Positions 1,339 to 44,869 of a stretch of DNA of 64,000 nucleotides are shown piece after piece. This DNA is from Octopus vulgaris (lineage: Eukaryota), in the NCBI GenBank assembly GCA_951406725.2, contig OX597814.1:23622001-23686000 (forward strand), given 5' to 3'. Every line of letters starts with the position of its first letter. The stretch's first letter is position 1. Made by a program: the position numbers and the translations under genes. A model generated the notes under the pieces. That model did not search any database and was not told the DNA's origin. It was given only the letters and a program-made list of their open reading frames with translations.

Positions 1339-2832
1339 TATATGAGATTAGACACTTTAAAAAACTTGGGTGATTCTCTCAGAAATGAGAATTTGAAAAA
1401 TATTCTGTTGGAATACCAACAAAAAAACAGTGCTGGAATACACAACATCATCAAGAAAATGTACTTTAAATCACCAAAGGAAAAACATGAAGACACCCAA
1501 AAGTAATTTCATATCTTCATTATAAATATCAGTTTTTAATGTCTGTCTTCCATACTGGCATTGCCTGGATGGTTTGTCAGATCCAGTAGGATTGCACCAT
1601 GCATCATGCTTCATATTTTAAACACCCATTTCCTTTATTCAATTTTGCTAGACTTACTCCTGTAGTACCAATCCACAACAATACCATTGTTATTTTGAGA
1701 CCGTATTCTCCTATACCTTACAGCAGTAGCTGAAGGAAAATCAGATCCATCTGTTATTTTTGCATGGTTATATCACATATTTCTCTACTTTTTTTATGTA
1801 TTCTTGGGCGTTCTTTGTGTTATTTCTCAAATCATCCAAACAAGGGGAATCCAGTTCCATGAAATTCTACTTAAAATTCAGTAGACTAGTCCAAATTATG
1901 TGTTTGGACTATTCTACTATGACAAAAAGGGTATTCTGCATCGTGTCCTCTATTTTACAAGGCTATGCATAATTGGAAGAAGTATCAGTGCTTCAGTCAA
2001 GCTCAGTACCTAACTCATGCTACAAATTTCATCAGCACACAGGTTAAATGGCAACATCAAGAGAGCAGAATTTGAACAAAGTATCTAAAGACATGCAACA
2101 ATTTTGTCAACACGTACGGCCTAAATTAGTAATGATAAATTCTGTATTCTGAAGCTAAGGAAGAAAAAACAAAAAGTTTACAAAATGAAGCAAGCATACA
2201 CACACGAGTACATACACACACACACACACACACACACGTCTAAGAAACATTAATAAAAAAAGACATTATAGCTATAGAGAATTTAAGATTATTTGTGCAT
2301 TTGTGAGTCAAAATGGATAACTAACAATATGAAATAAAATTTTGAAACATAATTCTCAAAGGTACCGAGTGGTCAATTGAGCCATTATTCCAATTTGTCA
2401 ACCCTGTAAAGTTTGATTGAAATATTTTTTGAAATATTCAATTGACCACCTTCTTAGAAATTTGAGATAACATTTGATGATCATAAAGGACCCCTGGAAA
2501 GCATCAGCAAAATTGTGTAATATTTTTAACATTATATTTCAGATTCAAAATAAAAATATAAATCAAATAAAAAATTTATTTCATTTTATTCTATTGTCTC
2601 TTCAAAATGATTGAATATTCTTAGTAGAAGAAATTCATAAAAGAATTATAGGATCTTGCCAAATTGATTTCTTAATAAGAATGTATTCAATGAAAAATGT
2701 AAGAGAGACAGTAGCCACTTGAGAACGTTTAGTAATTTATTTTTTCCATCATTCCTCAGAGAGTAGCTTTATAATATACATTGTTGCTATATGGTTCTTA
2801 TTAATGCTATTTCTTTTTGTGTATATATTTAC

Positions 2833-3002
2833 CTGAAACAAAGTAGCTTCTTTATACCAATTTTTATATGCTGGCGCCATTATCTCAGCCAAATACAGTT
2901 ACAGTTTTCTTTACAAAGATCACTGGAGAATATTTTAGGATGATTCATGTACATTATCGACTTAGTGCTTCCCTTTAAGCCTGCCATTCAATTTACATTT
3001 CC
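2833..3002 (-). other. Candidate exon A (5' part closed in all frames; ATG at 2880 gives MAPAYKNWYKEATLFQ up to the donor)
   Basis: Acceptor tatttttcattatcaatttcatctttag|, donor CAG|GTAAAT; ATG context gagataATGG. Confidence 0.5.
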
Positions 3003-3456
3003 CTAAAGATGAAATTGATAATGAAAAATATCATTCTACCAAAGACATTGTAGGTCATGTTTAAATATCTACAGTTCTTTACTTTTAGGAAACCTATTTT
3101 TTTTAAAGTATAACATTTAGAAAATATCAAGAGAGTATTTTTTTTGTAACAAAAATGAAACATCTATATTAATTCTAAAATTTAGTTAAGTTGTCCATTT
3201 TAATAGTAATAAATAATGTCATGTCTTCTGAAAACAATAAATGAATAGACTTGCTATGAAAGATAATAATTTAACCCTTGTTTTTTTTTAAATTTTCATA
3301 TTATGAATAAATTATCTTTTATTATTGTGTAATTACTGCATCACTTGCTCTTTATTCTAAAACAAAACAAATGTACTATGAGTGACCAGATATTAAAAAA
3401 GATGAGTAGAAAGCAAATACAAAGATGCAAATTATTATTATCATTATCACCAGCTA

Positions 3457-3660
3457 TTAAGCTGGCACAGTTTGTAGAACGTTTGACAAAATACCATGTA
3501 TTGCTTCCTCCAAAGCATTACATACTGGGTTCAAATCTTGCCAATTTCAGTTTTGGCTCTCATTCCTCCAGAGTTGATAAGATGAAATAAAATACTGTGG
3601 TTGATGGTAACAATTTATCTTCTTCCCTCAAATTACTGGCCTTGTGCCTAAATCAGAAAC
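3457..3660 (+). mobile_element. Degenerate SINE (family B)
   Basis: aagctggcacag...gggttcaaatct...aaattactggccttgtgcctaaat, matching the better copy at 26469. Confidence 0.65.
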
Positions 3661-3773
3661 CGTTATTATCATCATTAATATTATTATTATTATTGTTATT
3701 ATTATTATTAGGATTGAGGTAACTCCTCCAGAAGATATAGAAGCAAAAAAGAAGAGTGCCATTGTTATCAAGT

Positions 3774-3814
3774 TAAACGATATTTCGACCTCTTGTGTGT
3801 CTTCCACAAGTTCA
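3774..3814 (-). ncRNA. Minimal hammerhead-like motif, variant core (UUGUGGA)
   Basis: tgaac-TTGTGGA-A-GAC(acacaagag)GTC-GAAA-TA-TC-gttta. Confidence 0.5.
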
Positions 3815-4004
3815 AAAAATAAACTTGTCAATCTACTTCATTTTTGGTAATATTTGTGAGATTGAGACACATGAGATGTCGAAATATCATTCACTTGATA
3901 ACAATGACACTCTTCTTCTTTTTTTTGCTTCTATATCTTCTGAAGGAGTTACCTCAATCCTATAAATATTGCCAAAAATGAAGTAGATCGACAAGTTTAT
4001 TCTT

Positions 4005-4045
4005 TGAACCTGTGGAAGACACATGAGCTGTCAAAATATCATTCA
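4005..4045 (+). ncRNA. Minimal hammerhead-like motif, CUGUGGA core, G12>A decayed
   Basis: tgaac-CTGTGGA-A-GACA(catgagc)TGTC-AAAA-TA-TC-attca; the sister partial copy at 3865-3893 retains GAAA. Confidence 0.5.
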
Positions 4046-4109
4046 CTTGATAACAATGGCACTCTTCTTGTTTTGCTTCTATTACTATTGTTGTTGTTGT
4101 TGTTATTCC

Positions 4110-5970
4110 TTTTTGCACAGTGATATGTTTGTTAACACTGGATCATTTAAATGGCTCCTTTTGCTGCTCCCTAAAGTGTTGTCTTTTACAATGTCATAAT
4201 GCCAGAACAGATTCCAGTTATGTTAAGGTGTTTCTAAAAGTTTTTTCCTCACTTACCCAAGTCCTCCAGTTGTAATTGGTACCATTCTTGCTTTCATATT
4301 CCACATTGTCTCAGCCTTTACTCTCAAGTCTGCATATTTTATGATTTTCTTATTTTCTTTACCATTGATGTAATGATTTGGACAAACTACATCAATCAAC
4401 AAACGCCTTCTTACAGAATCTTTCTTCACCAAAGTTATGTCTGGCCTTGTATGTTCAAGAATTTATCTGTCTGGATTGTAAAGTCCCGCAAGAGCTTCTA
4501 ATTTTTCTAAGATCTTCTCTGATTTGTGCTGATATTATTTCTCAGTGGCTGGAAACTCATATGTATTGTATAAAAACTTGTAGAGGTGTAAGAACACGTT
4601 ATCATGACACCTTTACATTCTCTTTGAGCAAGCATGTCACAGGCACTCTTGATGTGTATCACAATTTCCACCATCTTCCCACATAACTTTCATTTATTTG
4701 TTTCACCTAGGTTATACATATTCCTTATTGAGTTTGTATTTAGTGCTTGATCCCTAGCAGTCACCAACAAATGTTCTGTCTCTCTGTTAAGATCATCTTT
4801 TGTCAACCTCTCTGTTTCTTCACTTCAAATTGACAGTGTAATTCCATACCCTCCCTCATGCTCAGTTTTCCTGCTAGCAGCCTCTATTCATATTTTTTTT
4901 ACTTTCAATAGTTTCAGTGTAGGATCTCTGCTTTTGGCAACATACCTTAAAAGTGCTCTACTTTGGCTAAATACAATTCTAAAGACCTGCATTCACAAGC
5001 CACAAAAATTTTCACACTTTAGGAGCAATGCATCACTGTCAACCATTGTCTTTCGTGTTAACCTGTCCAGTGTCTCTATTTCGTCTTTGGTCCATTTCAG
5101 AATACCTACGCTATATCTAATAACTGAATAGCCCAGACTTTGAAAACAGTAATCAAAATCTTCCCATTCACTTTCATTTTTAGTAGCAGTTCTAACCTGT
5201 TTAGATAAACTTCTTTCACATTTCCTTTCATCTGCTCATTTAGACCTTTTCCCAGCTTTTTGTACCCACTATTCCAAGGGTCACTAACTGACTCTCCGTC
5301 AGACAAATTAACCCCACTACTACATACAAACTTACCTCTCTCCATAGTCAAGTTGGCACACTTTACAATATCAAACTCCATCCCAATATCTTTACAGCAT
5401 CAGTTAACAGTTCTGACCGTTGAATTAACCCTATGATTCATTCTTGTCAAAAAGCTTGAGATCACCCATGAAGAGCAGATGACTGATCTTAGGTTCTCTG
5501 TTTTCTATCTGATAGCTAATATCTGTCTTCCATAAGATCATTGATAATGTAACCATGACCATCACAAAGAGCAATGGTAAGAATAAATCTCTTTGGAATA
5601 TTCCTTCTCATACAAGTATACTGACCACATTTAAGTGTTTATTACCTGCATACTTGTTTCTCTTTTACAAAGGCATGCTAGGCTACATTGCTTTAATAAC
5701 ACAGTCTGCTATTCCAGACAATCTTGGGATCATGTCAAAGGCTTTCTTAAAGGATATCTAAGCAGTGCATAAATTATTTAGACATCTTTTGCAATCATTC
5801 ATGATCACCTTGTCAGTAGCAAGATGATCCTTATTTCCCTAAGAATTTTCACAACATACCTTCTGCTGGTCAGGTAGCAATCTCATTCTGAAGCAAGTGA
5901 TCATACACTTGCAGCAAAAATACCTTCAACAACTTCCATAGCAAACATAAGCATGCATTTAGCCTCTGTC
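4110..5970 (-). mobile_element. Decayed R4/Dong-like non-LTR retrotransposon (RT + zinc knuckle + restriction-like endonuclease)
   Basis: Minus-strand fragments KKAFDMIP, GIFQRDLFLPLLF, KISHLLFMGDLKLF, DIGMEFDIVKCA, ETEHLLVTARDQAL, HIKSACDMLAQ, DFTIQTD..RPDI, KIIKYADL...MW...VPITTGGLG; many stops and frameshifts; 3' end abuts (AAC/AAT)n. Confidence 0.85.
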
Positions 5971-6367
5971 GAGGATCATATTTTTCATCCTTTCAGGGTC
6001 AGTGAGATAAGTACAGGGCAGTGGTATTTGATAAAATAAAATACCAGTTAAATATTGGAGATCTATGTAATTGACTGACACTCTTCTCTGAAAAATTGCT
6101 AGCCTTTTGATCTATATTAGAAATAATGATAATAATTATTATTATTTCCAAAAAGGGTGATAGATTGACAGAATCTTTAAAGCATCAGACAAAATAGGAT
6201 GTGGTATTTCTTTCATCTCTTTACAATCAAAAATGAAATTCTGCAGTGGGTAATTTTGTGTTCATTTTTTTGGAGTCAAATATAGGGTTGACATAATTGA
6301 CTAGCTTGCATCCCATCAATTTGCTAGCTGTGTACCTAAATTAGAATCTATTATGATTATTATTATT

Positions 6368-14521: not shown

Positions 14522-14912
14522 TACATAGATATGAATTGCTTATAAATCAAATAATGTATATAAGTAGAAACTAATTGTTGGCTTTTTTTAAATTGGTTAT
14601 ATTATATTTATAGTATATTATATTTTAATTATAATGTAATAAATTGTTAGATGGTCAATAAGTTATGTAGGCATAATTTAGAGGTGTTTAAGACCTCTAA
14701 GGGATGGTTAAATCCAAAGGCTCCCCCTGGGGATTACCTGGGTAGGTACTGTTCTTGGTAAAAGGTATACGATAGCAGGTAATTCAGGGGGTAAACCGTA
14801 GTTTATATTATATGCAAGAAGAAAATGAAGGGAAAATAACAGGAAGAATTTGGTCGTTTGCACTAGTAAGCCATTAATTTAATTAATTAATAAAGAAAAG
14901 TGGTAGTAATAG

Positions 14913-14968
14913 TGCATTTACGATCGTTTCTGTTTACCAGTTTTAGTGGTAGACATCATCAGAATACA
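14913..14968 (-). ncRNA. Intact minimal type I hammerhead ribozyme
   Basis: tgtatt-CTGATGA-TGTCTACCA(ctaaaac)TGGTAAACA-GAAAC-GATC-GTA-aatgca: 6-bp stem I, 9-bp stem II (1 mismatch), palindromic ACGATCGT stem III, GUA cleavage triplet. Confidence 0.85.
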
Positions 14969-15422
14969 GAGACATATGTAGTGTTTAGAAGAGCGAAAGA
15001 CATAGGGATACATTGGTAACAAGAATAAATACAAAGAATGGTGAGTCTTACATTATAGTAGGTTTCTTAGTTGATAATTCTGCTGCGAAGTGGATAGCGG
15101 ATGGAGGTTATTTTGATCTGTAGTCCCAAGTTTAAGTAAGCGCATATTTTCCATGGGTTTATTCTAGCTAGACTTTTCACCAGCGGTGTAAAGAAAGGGG
15201 GTTAACTCTAACTCATGGAGAAAAGAAGGCTAACTCTATTCATATTACTCAGTCTGGGGTGAGCAAGGAATTTATGTATCTTTGGGAGTTAAAGTTGTAG
15301 GAAGTTCATAGTAATGGAGGAAGCCCTGTGTAGGTGTAAAATAATTTACACCCACATAGCGAGTGGGGGTTGGGAGATGAATGTTTGCATGTAAGTAATT
15401 TAAGTGGTTCCAAATCTTTTAA

Positions 15423-15806
15423 AGATTTGAACTATCTATTTCTAGAGAAAAGGAACACAACTCCATTAACTACTTAGACACAAACTGCAACTTAGCCACA
15501 GGACTCCACGAACCCTATATAAAACCCAACTCTAACCTGAAATACATAAACGCATTCAGTAACCACCCAATCTTTATTAAGAGAGGTTTAGTACATAGCA
15601 TTAGCAATAGAATATCATGCCTCTCTTCCACCCAATATATTTTTAATAAGCATAAGGAAATTTATAATATCGTACTAGATAAAGCAGGATTTAAACAAAA
15701 AATTAAATACCTAGAACCCAATCGCTATACAAATAACCTAAATAACAGAAATCCACATGATAATACCATTAACACTAACCACACACCAAACGTCACTATA
15801 AACTAA
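15423..15806 (+). pseudogene. Penelope-like reverse transcriptase fragment (ATG-less open frame)
   Basis: INYLDTNCNLATGLHEPYIKPNSNLKYINAFSNHPIFIKRGLVHSISNRISCLSS...LDKAGF matches the PLE RT pattern FLD..YRKP..Y..SNHP..R..LSS; followed by an Asn-rich linker. Confidence 0.85.
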
Positions 15807-16513
15807 ACCAACAATAAGAACAGCTTAGATAAGCTCAACAAGAATAATAACAATAGAAACAATGTTAAGTCCCATACACAAATCACCAATAATATTACAA
15901 ACAACGACAACATGAATACCAACAATGTGATAATCAATAAAATTAACAACATTAACAAGACTAATAACATGAATTATAAAAACAAGTTGGAAAATAATAA
16001 TAGCTACAATAAGAATAATATAAAGCTACACATTGATAAGAATAAAAATAAAGAGCCCCAAAGAACAAAGATAAACTCTGTTAAATGCATAACAACAGGT
16101 CATTGAGTCCACATAAACCATACAGAAATAACCCCAATAAAACAGACAGGAGCAATAGTAAAGATAAACCCAACTATAGTTATTTTTCCCCCATTTTCTT
16201 CTTGAATATACATATATATATATAACCCATGCTAGCATGGAAAGCGGACGTTAAGCGACGGTGATGATGATGATGATGATATATATATATATAGAAAGAT
16301 TATATATTATAGAAAGATTAGATATAAGATAAAACATATAATGATGATTAAGTTATGTGCAAAATAATAAATAAAACGTATATATATAATATTATATAAA
16401 ATATAATATATATATATATATAGATTATATTTTGTGAAATTTGATTTAGTATTTCTAAATTGAATTTTTCCCTGCAAGTTTGGAATAATATTCCCCCATA
16501 CTTATTATTATTA

Positions 16514-31933: not shown

Positions 31934-32086
31934 ACGAAGACAGGTGGTGTAGAAAACAAACAGATGTATTAGTATAACGCTCGGGAATTGAAAAATTCTT
32001 TTACGTTTCGAGCCTACGCTCTTCCACAGAAAGGAACACAGAAACAAGGAGAGAAAAAATGTGTGTAGTGGCTACCGATCAACGTG

Positions 32087-37990: not shown

Positions 37991-39228
37991 TATGAGAAGG
38001 ATGAAAAGCAAAGCTGGTTTCAGCAGGATTTGATCTTATATAAAGGATCTTAACTAAGCACTTTAAGTGTATTTTTCAGATGCTCTAATAATTCTGCCAA
38101 TCCACCACTTTTGATACTAATGAAGAGTAGTATTGTGTAAATTGAAGTATGTTGAGATGTTAGTTGTGTACTTATATAGGCAAAAGAAGCAGATAAGAAA
38201 GATACACATGCCCAAAAAGGTCTGCTTAAACAACATTGAACATTCTCTGTATCATATTTCAGAGAAGTGGAAAATTCTCTCAATATTCTGTTGTGTCTGT
38301 GGAGAGTCATTTTCTTTTTGTGCCTTATAATTTAACACACTCACTGGTAAAATTTCCACTTATTTCTTATTTTTATTTTCCTAAACTTTTCGTTGTGTCT
38401 TGCAACCTTTTCAATAGTCTTTGACTCAAAATATGATTGGTTAAAATCCTGGAGTCGAGTTACTGTAGTTACAGATTTGGTACTGAAGTTTAACTCACAA
38501 AATATTGCTATAGCAAAGTACTAAATGTAACTCAGAATTAATGAAAAAAAAAAACCCCATCAATTTTTTTACTATATAAACCAACAAGGCTAGAATCTGC
38601 ACATTATTCAACACATATTAATCAAATTTTAATTATGAATCAGGTTATAATTAGTATTGTATTATGTCCATCTACATGCAATTTATTTTCACTTTAGCTG
38701 AGAATTCATTTTCACTTTCTGATTACTAAGAGAAAGTCAGAACATAAAACACACTCAATGTTCATTCATATATGTACTTTCATTCTTGTATATGGAGAGA
38801 AAAAGAAGGGTGAAGAAAGAAATATTCAAACAACACCTAAAATTTAATTCAGACCAATTTACTAGAAAGCCAGTTTTTCAGACTCATAGGCTGTTGGATA
38901 ATTTATTATTTATAGATTTGATAATGTGCCAGGATAATACATAATTTCAAACAGTCTCATGATATTTCAATACTAAAGATTTTATATAAACATACAAATG
39001 CAGACACACAGATGCACAGACACAGACACACATAGACACACAAACACACACACACATACATAATATAATCTGTCATTAAATATAGGACACTTAATATACA
39101 TTAGTACAGAATTCAGAAGAATTAAGAGAAAAGATCATCAATAATCATATCAATACATAAATACATACATATGTATATATCAGTATATGACGTTAACGCA
39201 CACACACACACATATGTGTATATATATA

Positions 39229-41420: not shown

Positions 41421-41688
41421 TAAAGAAACCAAATATCATAAAGTGTTTTGCCCACAACCCATGCCAGCATGAAACATGAACATAAAATGACAATTTATGA
41501 TGATTGACTGCCCTTAATAAATACTGTTAGGTAGAAAAATGAGGGGACTTATTTGTAGATACTGATTTGGTTGAAAATTAGGAAACTTGGAGTTTCTAAT
41601 CTTCCTGGACATTTCTCAATGATACTTCAATAGTTGTGCCAAACTCACAATTAACAATTAAAATGCAGAATATATTTCAATAATGATA

Positions 41689-43951: not shown

Positions 43952-44206
43952 CACACACACACACACACACACACACATGCACACATATAAATGCATTCAT
44001 ATTTGTTTTATGTTAAGTTGTTAAAAGAATTGCTCAATACTTTTCAGCAGAGTACATGTTTATTAAATTTTTACAAGAAGAAGGATAACAGCGACTTCAA
44101 ATTTTCAACCTGCTAGCATATATGTGAGTGTATATGGACCGTGTGTGTATCATTGGTGATATTTTTTTCTTCCGTCTTCCCTTCCTTGGATCTTTCTTTT
44201 TCCTAT

Positions 44207-44240
44207 GTTTCTGATGAAGAGCTCCACTTGAAACGTTAAA
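44207..44240 (+). ncRNA. Minimal hammerhead motif in a short Penelope-derived repeat (about 44100-44345)
   Basis: ttt-CTGATGA-A-GAG(ctcca)CTT-GAAA-C-GTT-aaa. Confidence 0.55.
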
Positions 44241-44869
44241 TCCTCCTTCTTTCTTTCCTTTCCTGGGCATCCAATAACACTATACTTGTTTCACGTCCTT
44301 GCATTGTTGTGTTTTCTCTTTGTGTTTTCATGTCTGGATTAACTTTATAAATACATACATATAATACTGATTCACAGGCATGCATTCACATGCATGTATA
44401 TATTTCTATGGATGTCCAACAATAATTTCTGTTGCTCAAAATCTAACATCTGAGAATAGGCTTTTTAAATTTCCAGGTGTATTGCAGTTTCCTTGGGGTT
44501 ACATTCTATTATATATCCTGATGTAGCAAAGAAATGGAAAATTAAAAACAGAAAATGGAAAACCCATTCACTGAGAAAAATCATGATACTAAAGGAAAAA
44601 AAAAATTTTTTAACTACTAAATCTATTTATAGATTTCTTGATTGACTTTGTGGTCATTGATGATTGCTAGTTTGTTTTTCCATTTGCATTCTCCTCCTAC
44701 TACTACTCTTCACTTCAATATCTATTTATTTTCCAATATCACATGGTGTTCAACCATCAATTGCTTTTCTTTTCATTATTGCTGTTATTTTGGCTAATAC
44801 AAAAAAGCAGATATTTAAAAAGATTATAGAGTCTGTGAGATTATGCCCCCACTGTGTGTCCATATATAC

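Follow-up and report, generated by a model that had tools for sequence, protein, structure and literature searches.

A 148-base repeat of Octopus vulgaris as a probable non-autonomous Penelope-like element with a minimal, U6-core hammerhead motif

The stretch of DNA analysed here (the window) comprises 64,000 nucleotides of Octopus vulgaris (assembly GCA_951406725.2, contig OX597814.1, positions 23,622,001 to 23,686,000 of the forward strand), and positions are counted from its first letter. It carries, between two microsatellites, one complex and now decayed insertion that belongs to a 148-base repeat family and is made of one inverted copy (A) and of two direct copies (B and C) in partial tandem. 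The features are as follows.

3663..3710, plus strand: (TTA)n microsatellite, (TTA)16, left part of the likely target
3709..3866, minus strand: copy A, inverted, a full 148-base unit with a short overlap added; the tail lies at the 3' end, which enters the microsatellite
3709..3736, minus strand: tail of 28 bases at the left end of the insertion; the right end has none
3774..3814, minus strand: copy A's minimal hammerhead (type I), with the U6 core and a local C3U; cleavage predicted between 3779 and 3778
3865..3962, plus strand: copy B, 5'-truncated inside the hammerhead (begins at stem II), G12 intact, tail at its end
3935..3962, plus strand: tail sequence at the B/C tandem junction
3963..4082, plus strand: copy C, remainder of the unit, end without tail
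4005..4045, plus strand: copy C's minimal hammerhead (type I), with local G12A (4033) and G1.1A (4041); cleavage predicted after 4040
4005-4009 with 4041-4045, plus strand: stem I of copy C
4010-4016, plus strand: core of copy C, U6 at 4013 and N7 at 4014
4017, plus strand: extra A of copy C
4018-4021 with 4029-4032, plus strand: stem II of copy C, with loop II at 4022-4028
4036-4039, plus strand: palindrome of copy C
4088..4104, plus strand: (TTG)n microsatellite, (TTG)5.7, right part of the likely target

We take the left flank (3520-3660) to resemble an octopus SINE and the right flank (4110-5500, minus strand) an RTE-type LINE fragment. At the inversion point, copies A and B overlap by 2 bases. 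The three copies are 88 to 94% identical over aligned columns (A/C 114/129, A/B 59/65, B/C 62/66), and the unit, of 148-152 bases, has 35% G+C. Copy A starts with the last 7 bases of the 28-base tail, so that it spans the unit junction alone, with a period of 148; copy A and the B-C tandem each have the tail-to-unit junction independently. From B to C, the period is 152, a longer pyrimidine tract accounting for the extra bases in copy B. An earlier note on this DNA had proposed a unit of about 152 bp, once on the minus strand and about 1.4 times in tandem on the plus strand: the layout stands, whereas the length of about 148 is the commoner one, being that of copy A and of the joint seen in public contigs, and 152 applies to B-to-C only. 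No further match to the unit or the tail was found within the 64-kb window beyond copies A, B, and C, and no target-site duplication is readable within the flanking microsatellite. The fold-back of a read-through RNA is predicted at −184 kcal/mol (z −20.7), a value equalled by none of 100 shuffles and in line with the dsRNA of about 150 bp expected in the earlier note. All three local copies are decayed and likely inert.

The repeat is not confined to this locus. Contigs from 4 of 24 listed public runs aligned to one unit (3930-4090) at 80% likeness: X2 (DNA, organism label B), X8 (DNA, D), X17 (guessed RNA, B), and X18 (guessed RNA, E), with 372, 616, 39, and 16 aligned contigs, respectively, under three organism labels overall; summed contig depth was not taken as copy number. 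The tail-to-unit junction is crossed by contigs in all four runs. A joint that goes back by 148 bases is present in three of them (X2, X8, and X17) and is the commonest head-to-tail joint, the others spanning 137 to 151. Among the 15 joints listed, six change strand, each at a different place. Several loose ends enter ATT repeats, behind the tail or behind the tail-less end (15 and 11 contigs in X8, 2 in X18), and X8 contigs exit the tail into such repeats. Hence, tandem joins, inversions, and microsatellite ends are traits of the family, because they are found in contigs from other copies, and the claim that a family exists, which had been made from the window alone, is now carried by the 372 and 616 contigs of two DNA runs and by their head-to-tail joints. 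We also observed that, in X8, the tail (3936-3961) has about double the summed contig depth found over the remainder of the unit, and that four X8 contigs leave the tail into sequence that is not microsatellite. The tail may also belong to another family, which could be that of the autonomous partner.

The motif has the anatomy of a type I hammerhead whose stem III is reduced to the self-complementary 4-mer AUAU, as first described from the window. The extra base after A9 (A4017), the pair G10.1-C11.1 (G4018-C4032), and the AUAU palindrome are all present, and an intramolecular stem III is absent: the motif is minimal, not canonical. A strict descriptor gave three matches in the window, including copy A, versus 0.03 per shuffled window (100 shuffles). 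A looser one gave six matches versus 1.55 expected by chance and, at this rate, its matches at 41553, 46209, and 48447 were discarded. With E values allowed up to 10, Rfam returned no hammerhead within 2000-6000; over the whole window, it gave nothing that reached a gathering score. The three local defects already listed in the earlier note (C3U, truncation, and G12A) are real; it had overlooked G1.1A, in copies B and C, which breaks the first pair of stem I. Its core letters, CUGUGGA, are also right, without U6 having been flagged as a family-wide departure expected to weaken catalysis.

The contigs of the other copies indicate which of these letters belong to the family. G12 is the majority letter in all four runs (84, 92, 100, and 64% of depth in X2, X8, X17, and X18), G1.1 stands at 72, 92, 86, and 100% in the same order, and in the two DNA runs C3U reaches 1.5 and 1.3%. 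C3U, G12A, and G1.1A, the defects of the local copies, are thus minority states and, since G12A and G1.1A both lie within a CpG, decay is suggested. Copies A and C both have U at position 6, where, among the table rows listed, alternatives stay below 5% in each of the four runs; N7, on the other hand, alternates between G and U. Among the same rows, no variant appears at 4034-4040 (GAAA after G12, and U16.1-H17), at 4017, at 4018/4032, or in the palindrome. With a threshold of at least 5% in a DNA run, variable positions number 6 of 7 in loop II, plus N7, versus 1 of 15 in the core (Fisher p 2.5e-4, a post hoc test on positions that are not independent). Compared with the positions outside the motif, 9/95 of which vary, the core (1/15) is no better conserved, so the signal lies in the freedom of loop II and N7, not in extra core conservation. 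In stem II, the changes 4019 A>G and 4031 T>C, which turn A-U into G-C, occur at equal depth in X18 (4 contigs each) and in 19 and 18 contigs of X8, the X2 change at 4019/4031 being to G-U; wobble changes are seen at 4009, 4020, and 4044. Pair-breaking minorities also exist (4020 C>A at 5.7% in X8; G1.1 absent in 28% of the depth in X2), and this pairing support was tallied from the per-position table, which is not a covariation test on whole sequences. Thus, with G12 in the majority in all four runs and most stem changes keeping the pair, the family consensus retains both GAAA and the paired stems, whose loss, according to the earlier note, would speak against the hammerhead.

The motif fits the published consensus of minimal hammerheads, CUGANGAH, except at position 6, where all 56 of the published representatives compared here have A6 (PMC4209133). 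U6 is expected to weaken catalysis, judging from related variants: a natural A6C hammerhead, from phage Bcep176, has low but detectable activity, with a kobs below 0.1 per minute (Perreault 2011, PMC3088659), and pairwise mutagenesis reports low activity for every change of the CUGA turn except a C-G swap (PMC9901934). Minimal hammerheads are, moreover, described as weak even as dimers (PMC4209133). The predicted probability of the hammerhead in the natural folds is 0.00008 for copy A and 0.006 for copy C, and the palindrome duplex alone is predicted to be unstable (+0.2 kcal/mol). Folding of the natural monomers or homodimers did not recover the hammerhead, the double-hammerhead form being outside the scoring. 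Competing predicted hairpins (4037-4052 and 3992-4013) cover the cut site and the 5' part of the core and could, if they form as modelled, switch monomers off; in the alternative hairpin, a U-G pair persists with the 4052 A>G variant.

Other hammerhead-like motifs are scattered in the window. At 32034-31994, on the minus strand (the 32029 motif), a second minimal one in single copy has the CUGUGGA core, a CG palindrome, and unrelated stems; it sits in a short insert between microsatellites, is matched in none of 100 shuffles, and is likely the pseudo-LTR of another Penelope-like element (PLE) family. At 44206-44245, on the plus strand, a minimal motif has the canonical CUGAUGA core and a stem II that resembles that of the 32029 motif. 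On the minus strand, a doubtful match at 38418 has a U3-A8-type core and no stem III palindrome. The region 14700-16200 holds a fragment that resembles a PLE reverse transcriptase (RT) region and is not similar to the 148-base unit; an opposite-strand piece near 14960, beside it, carries a hammerhead-like CUGAUGA motif. The fragment's ORF (15423-15806) had over 15423-15740 a single protein match, P0001 of Octopus bimaculoides, with 77% identity and a YRDD motif in P0001; both would be PLE reverse transcriptase, and Pfam gave nothing useful for four window ORFs or for P0001. Pattern scans for the motif returned no locus in viral contigs and none in prokaryotic genomes; the sole metagenome match was rejected as a chance match, lying inside a bacterial coding region (L001).

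The survey of Luense 2017 reportedly covers about 150,000 variants with a short stem III. Because it and the supplement of PMC7229834, either of which may list U6 variants or this very family, lie outside our comparison, the novelty of the U6 core is claimed provisionally: no description of a fixed U6 variant was found in the literature on A6U hammerheads, core strings, and octopus hammerhead ribozymes. The unrelated 32029 motif, with its same U6 core, suggests that U6 is not confined to the 148-base family, a point taken from sequence comparison. A much bolder proposal, which we judge unlikely, would make of these motifs a lineage-wide octopus class of active hammerheads with a rewired core (CUGUNGA), present in at least two unrelated Penelope-type families and missed by CUGANGA descriptors; here, a protein-assisted or dimeric ribozyme would free 148-base circularising monomers, among the smallest natural ribozyme-made animal circRNAs.

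We consider it probable that the family is a non-autonomous PLE, that is, a self-closed pseudo-LTR with no room for a gene, whose minimal hammerhead motif is of PLE type and has a U6 core throughout the family. Indeed, inversion, partial tandem, and a one-sided 28-base tail are PLE hallmarks: endonuclease-bearing PLEs are described with a partial tandem, an adjacent inverted 5'-truncated copy, an optional tail of 30-40 bases at one end, and a microsatellite bias (PMC8557442). The partial tandem and the adjacent inverted 5'-truncated copy are present here, and the opposite-strand joints listed above come from other copies. The target appears to be of the microsatellite or AT-rich type, judging from this locus, which lies between (TTA)n and (TTG)n, and from contigs ending in ATT repeats. 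Between the tail and the next hammerhead there are only about 42 bases, which leaves no room for a gene. The earlier note had spoken of a very small retrozyme or pLTR family. The kind of element is one already known, and the second term is retained: a pLTR or non-autonomous PLE is a better fit than a circle-based retrozyme, since the two ends of the insertion show the PLE tail and lie 42 and about 70 bases downstream of the predicted cut rather than at it. The two labels would in any case largely converge, since a 2026 preprint (10.64898/2026.07.22.740005) derives animal non-LTR retrozymes, with units of 51 to 972 bases, from PLEs as non-autonomous elements. PLEs represent 6.83% of the O. vulgaris assembly, in 190 families, ribozymes being unmentioned in the part of that source used here (PMC13282606). 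An autonomous partner with RT plus GIY-YIG and the same 3' end was not found within the 64-kb window or in the loose contig ends (30 letters visible each).

In the mechanism that we propose, a multimeric transcript would be reverse-transcribed in trans by the protein of an autonomous PLE, which would nick ATT-rich DNA. The inverted copy would result from priming on both target strands, and the tailed and tail-less ends from two start sites separated by 28 bases. In the anole, a PLE protein cuts ATT on both strands and two internal RT start sites delimit the tail; the hammerhead of this element cleaves only with the protein present, is dispensable for insertion in vitro, and no RNA ends are reported at its cut (PMC11167929). 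The octopus hammerhead would likely cleave after AUC at a slow rate, either dimerised through AUAU or helped by a protein, and would likely be unneeded for defining the inserted ends. Such slow, assisted cleavage is our best guess.

For the catalytic step only, we give an appreciable chance, below even, to a non-autonomous PLE whose hammerhead-shaped motif no longer cuts and is kept as a folding or protein-binding signal or as a parental relic. In the published assays (PMC3088659, PMC9901934), hardly any change is tolerated in the CUGA turn, and yet U6 is fixed; a competing hairpin hides the cut site in the predicted folds, and cleavage is dispensable for insertion in vitro (PMC11167929). Against this loss of cleavage, the palindrome and all the remaining core letters persist beside a variable N7 and loop II, the second, unrelated motif at 32029 has the same core, and the natural A6C variant kept a low, detectable activity (PMC3088659).

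It is quite unlikely that the copies are merely truncated 3' ends (pseudo-LTRs) of an autonomous PLE, the 148-base unit not propagating itself. Most PLE copies are reported as 5'-truncated (PMC4209133, PMC8557442), and the higher X8 depth over the tail, like the four X8 contigs that leave it into non-microsatellite sequence, would agree with such an origin. However, random truncation is not expected to produce one fixed junction, and the tail-to-unit junction occurs independently in A and in B-C and is crossed in all four runs; moreover, only 2 to 11% of the X2, X8, and X17 contigs continue into unlike sequence (50% of the 16 in X18).

We find distinctly unlikely a classical non-LTR retrozyme, whose tandem transcripts would be cut efficiently to 148-base monomers and whose circles would be the transposition intermediates. 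The size of the unit and its G+C content do lie near the lower limit of what is given for retrozymes (150-450 bases in PMC7229834; 51-972 in the 2026 preprint), and the head-to-tail joint exists in two contigs of X17, a guessed RNA run. The same joint, however, is found in DNA runs and is, therefore, no evidence of circles, and the insertion ends away from the cut site. Circle-making retrozymes carry canonical type I hammerheads, minimal motifs being set apart as PLE-type (PMC7229834), and the motif here is minimal, with U6. As for efficient cutting, one of nine Xenopus dimers was cleaved (preprint 10.64898/2026.07.22.740005), and the anole PLE inserts without cleavage and without RNA ends at the cut (PMC11167929). 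Finally, a chance match inside a fold-back element or a microRNA-like hairpin is scarcely credible: the long hairpin does match a plant microRNA model (MIR2646, E 1.5e-16), a match rejected as that of a generic long hairpin, with 80 bits far under the gathering score of 245, and this hairpin stems from the inverted copy while the family unit is direct and tandem, the motif is expected 0.03 times per window, and the family variation obeys hammerhead rules.

Under the non-autonomous PLE reading, the consequences depend on whether the U6 motif cuts. If it does, the natural catalytic core of the best-studied small ribozyme would be widened, and the family would be a natural test of the rescue of a weak core by a PLE protein or by dimerisation. 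If it does not, it would be a clean case of a hammerhead fold retained for another reason, which bears on the purpose of PLE hammerheads. The hammerhead surveys of the cited papers use a CUGANGA core, so families with U6 would escape them, and cephalopods are not among the sampled groups named in the part of the 2026 preprint drawn on here (10.64898/2026.07.22.740005). With motif, tail, and start sites within 148 bases, the unit would also offer a compact substrate for work on the PLE mechanism.

Compared with known systems, the closest motif is the minimal hammerhead of PLE pseudo-LTRs as described by Cervera and De la Pena 2014 (PMC4209133): both are of type I, with a 5-pair stem I, an extra base between 9 and 10.1, the G10.1-C11.1 pair, a palindrome at 15.2-16.2, no real stem III, and motifs on opposite strands a few hundred bases apart. 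They differ in the core, CUGUGGA here, and in that no coding region separates successive motifs here. The insertions of Penelope/Poseidon, Neptune, Nematis, and Hydra PLEs (PMC8557442, PMC11167929) share with our locus a partial tandem next to a truncated copy in inverse orientation, a tail on one side, and a microsatellite or ATT target; unlike endonuclease-bearing PLEs, the unit here is non-coding and 148 bases long, with a tail of about 28 bases. Animal non-LTR retrozymes (PMC7229834; 2026 preprint) are likewise short, low in G+C, arranged head to tail, devoid of protein, and provided with one type I hammerhead per unit. In contrast with those of PMC7229834, the octopus motif is minimal, without a paired stem III, and its cleavage and any circles are putative; the two consecutive complete motifs by which the preprint recognises an active retrozyme are lacking at the locus. 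Finally, the A6C hammerhead of Bcep176 (PMC3088659) is also changed at core position 6, but it is a single example, whereas A6U here is fixed in a multi-copy family found under three organism labels.
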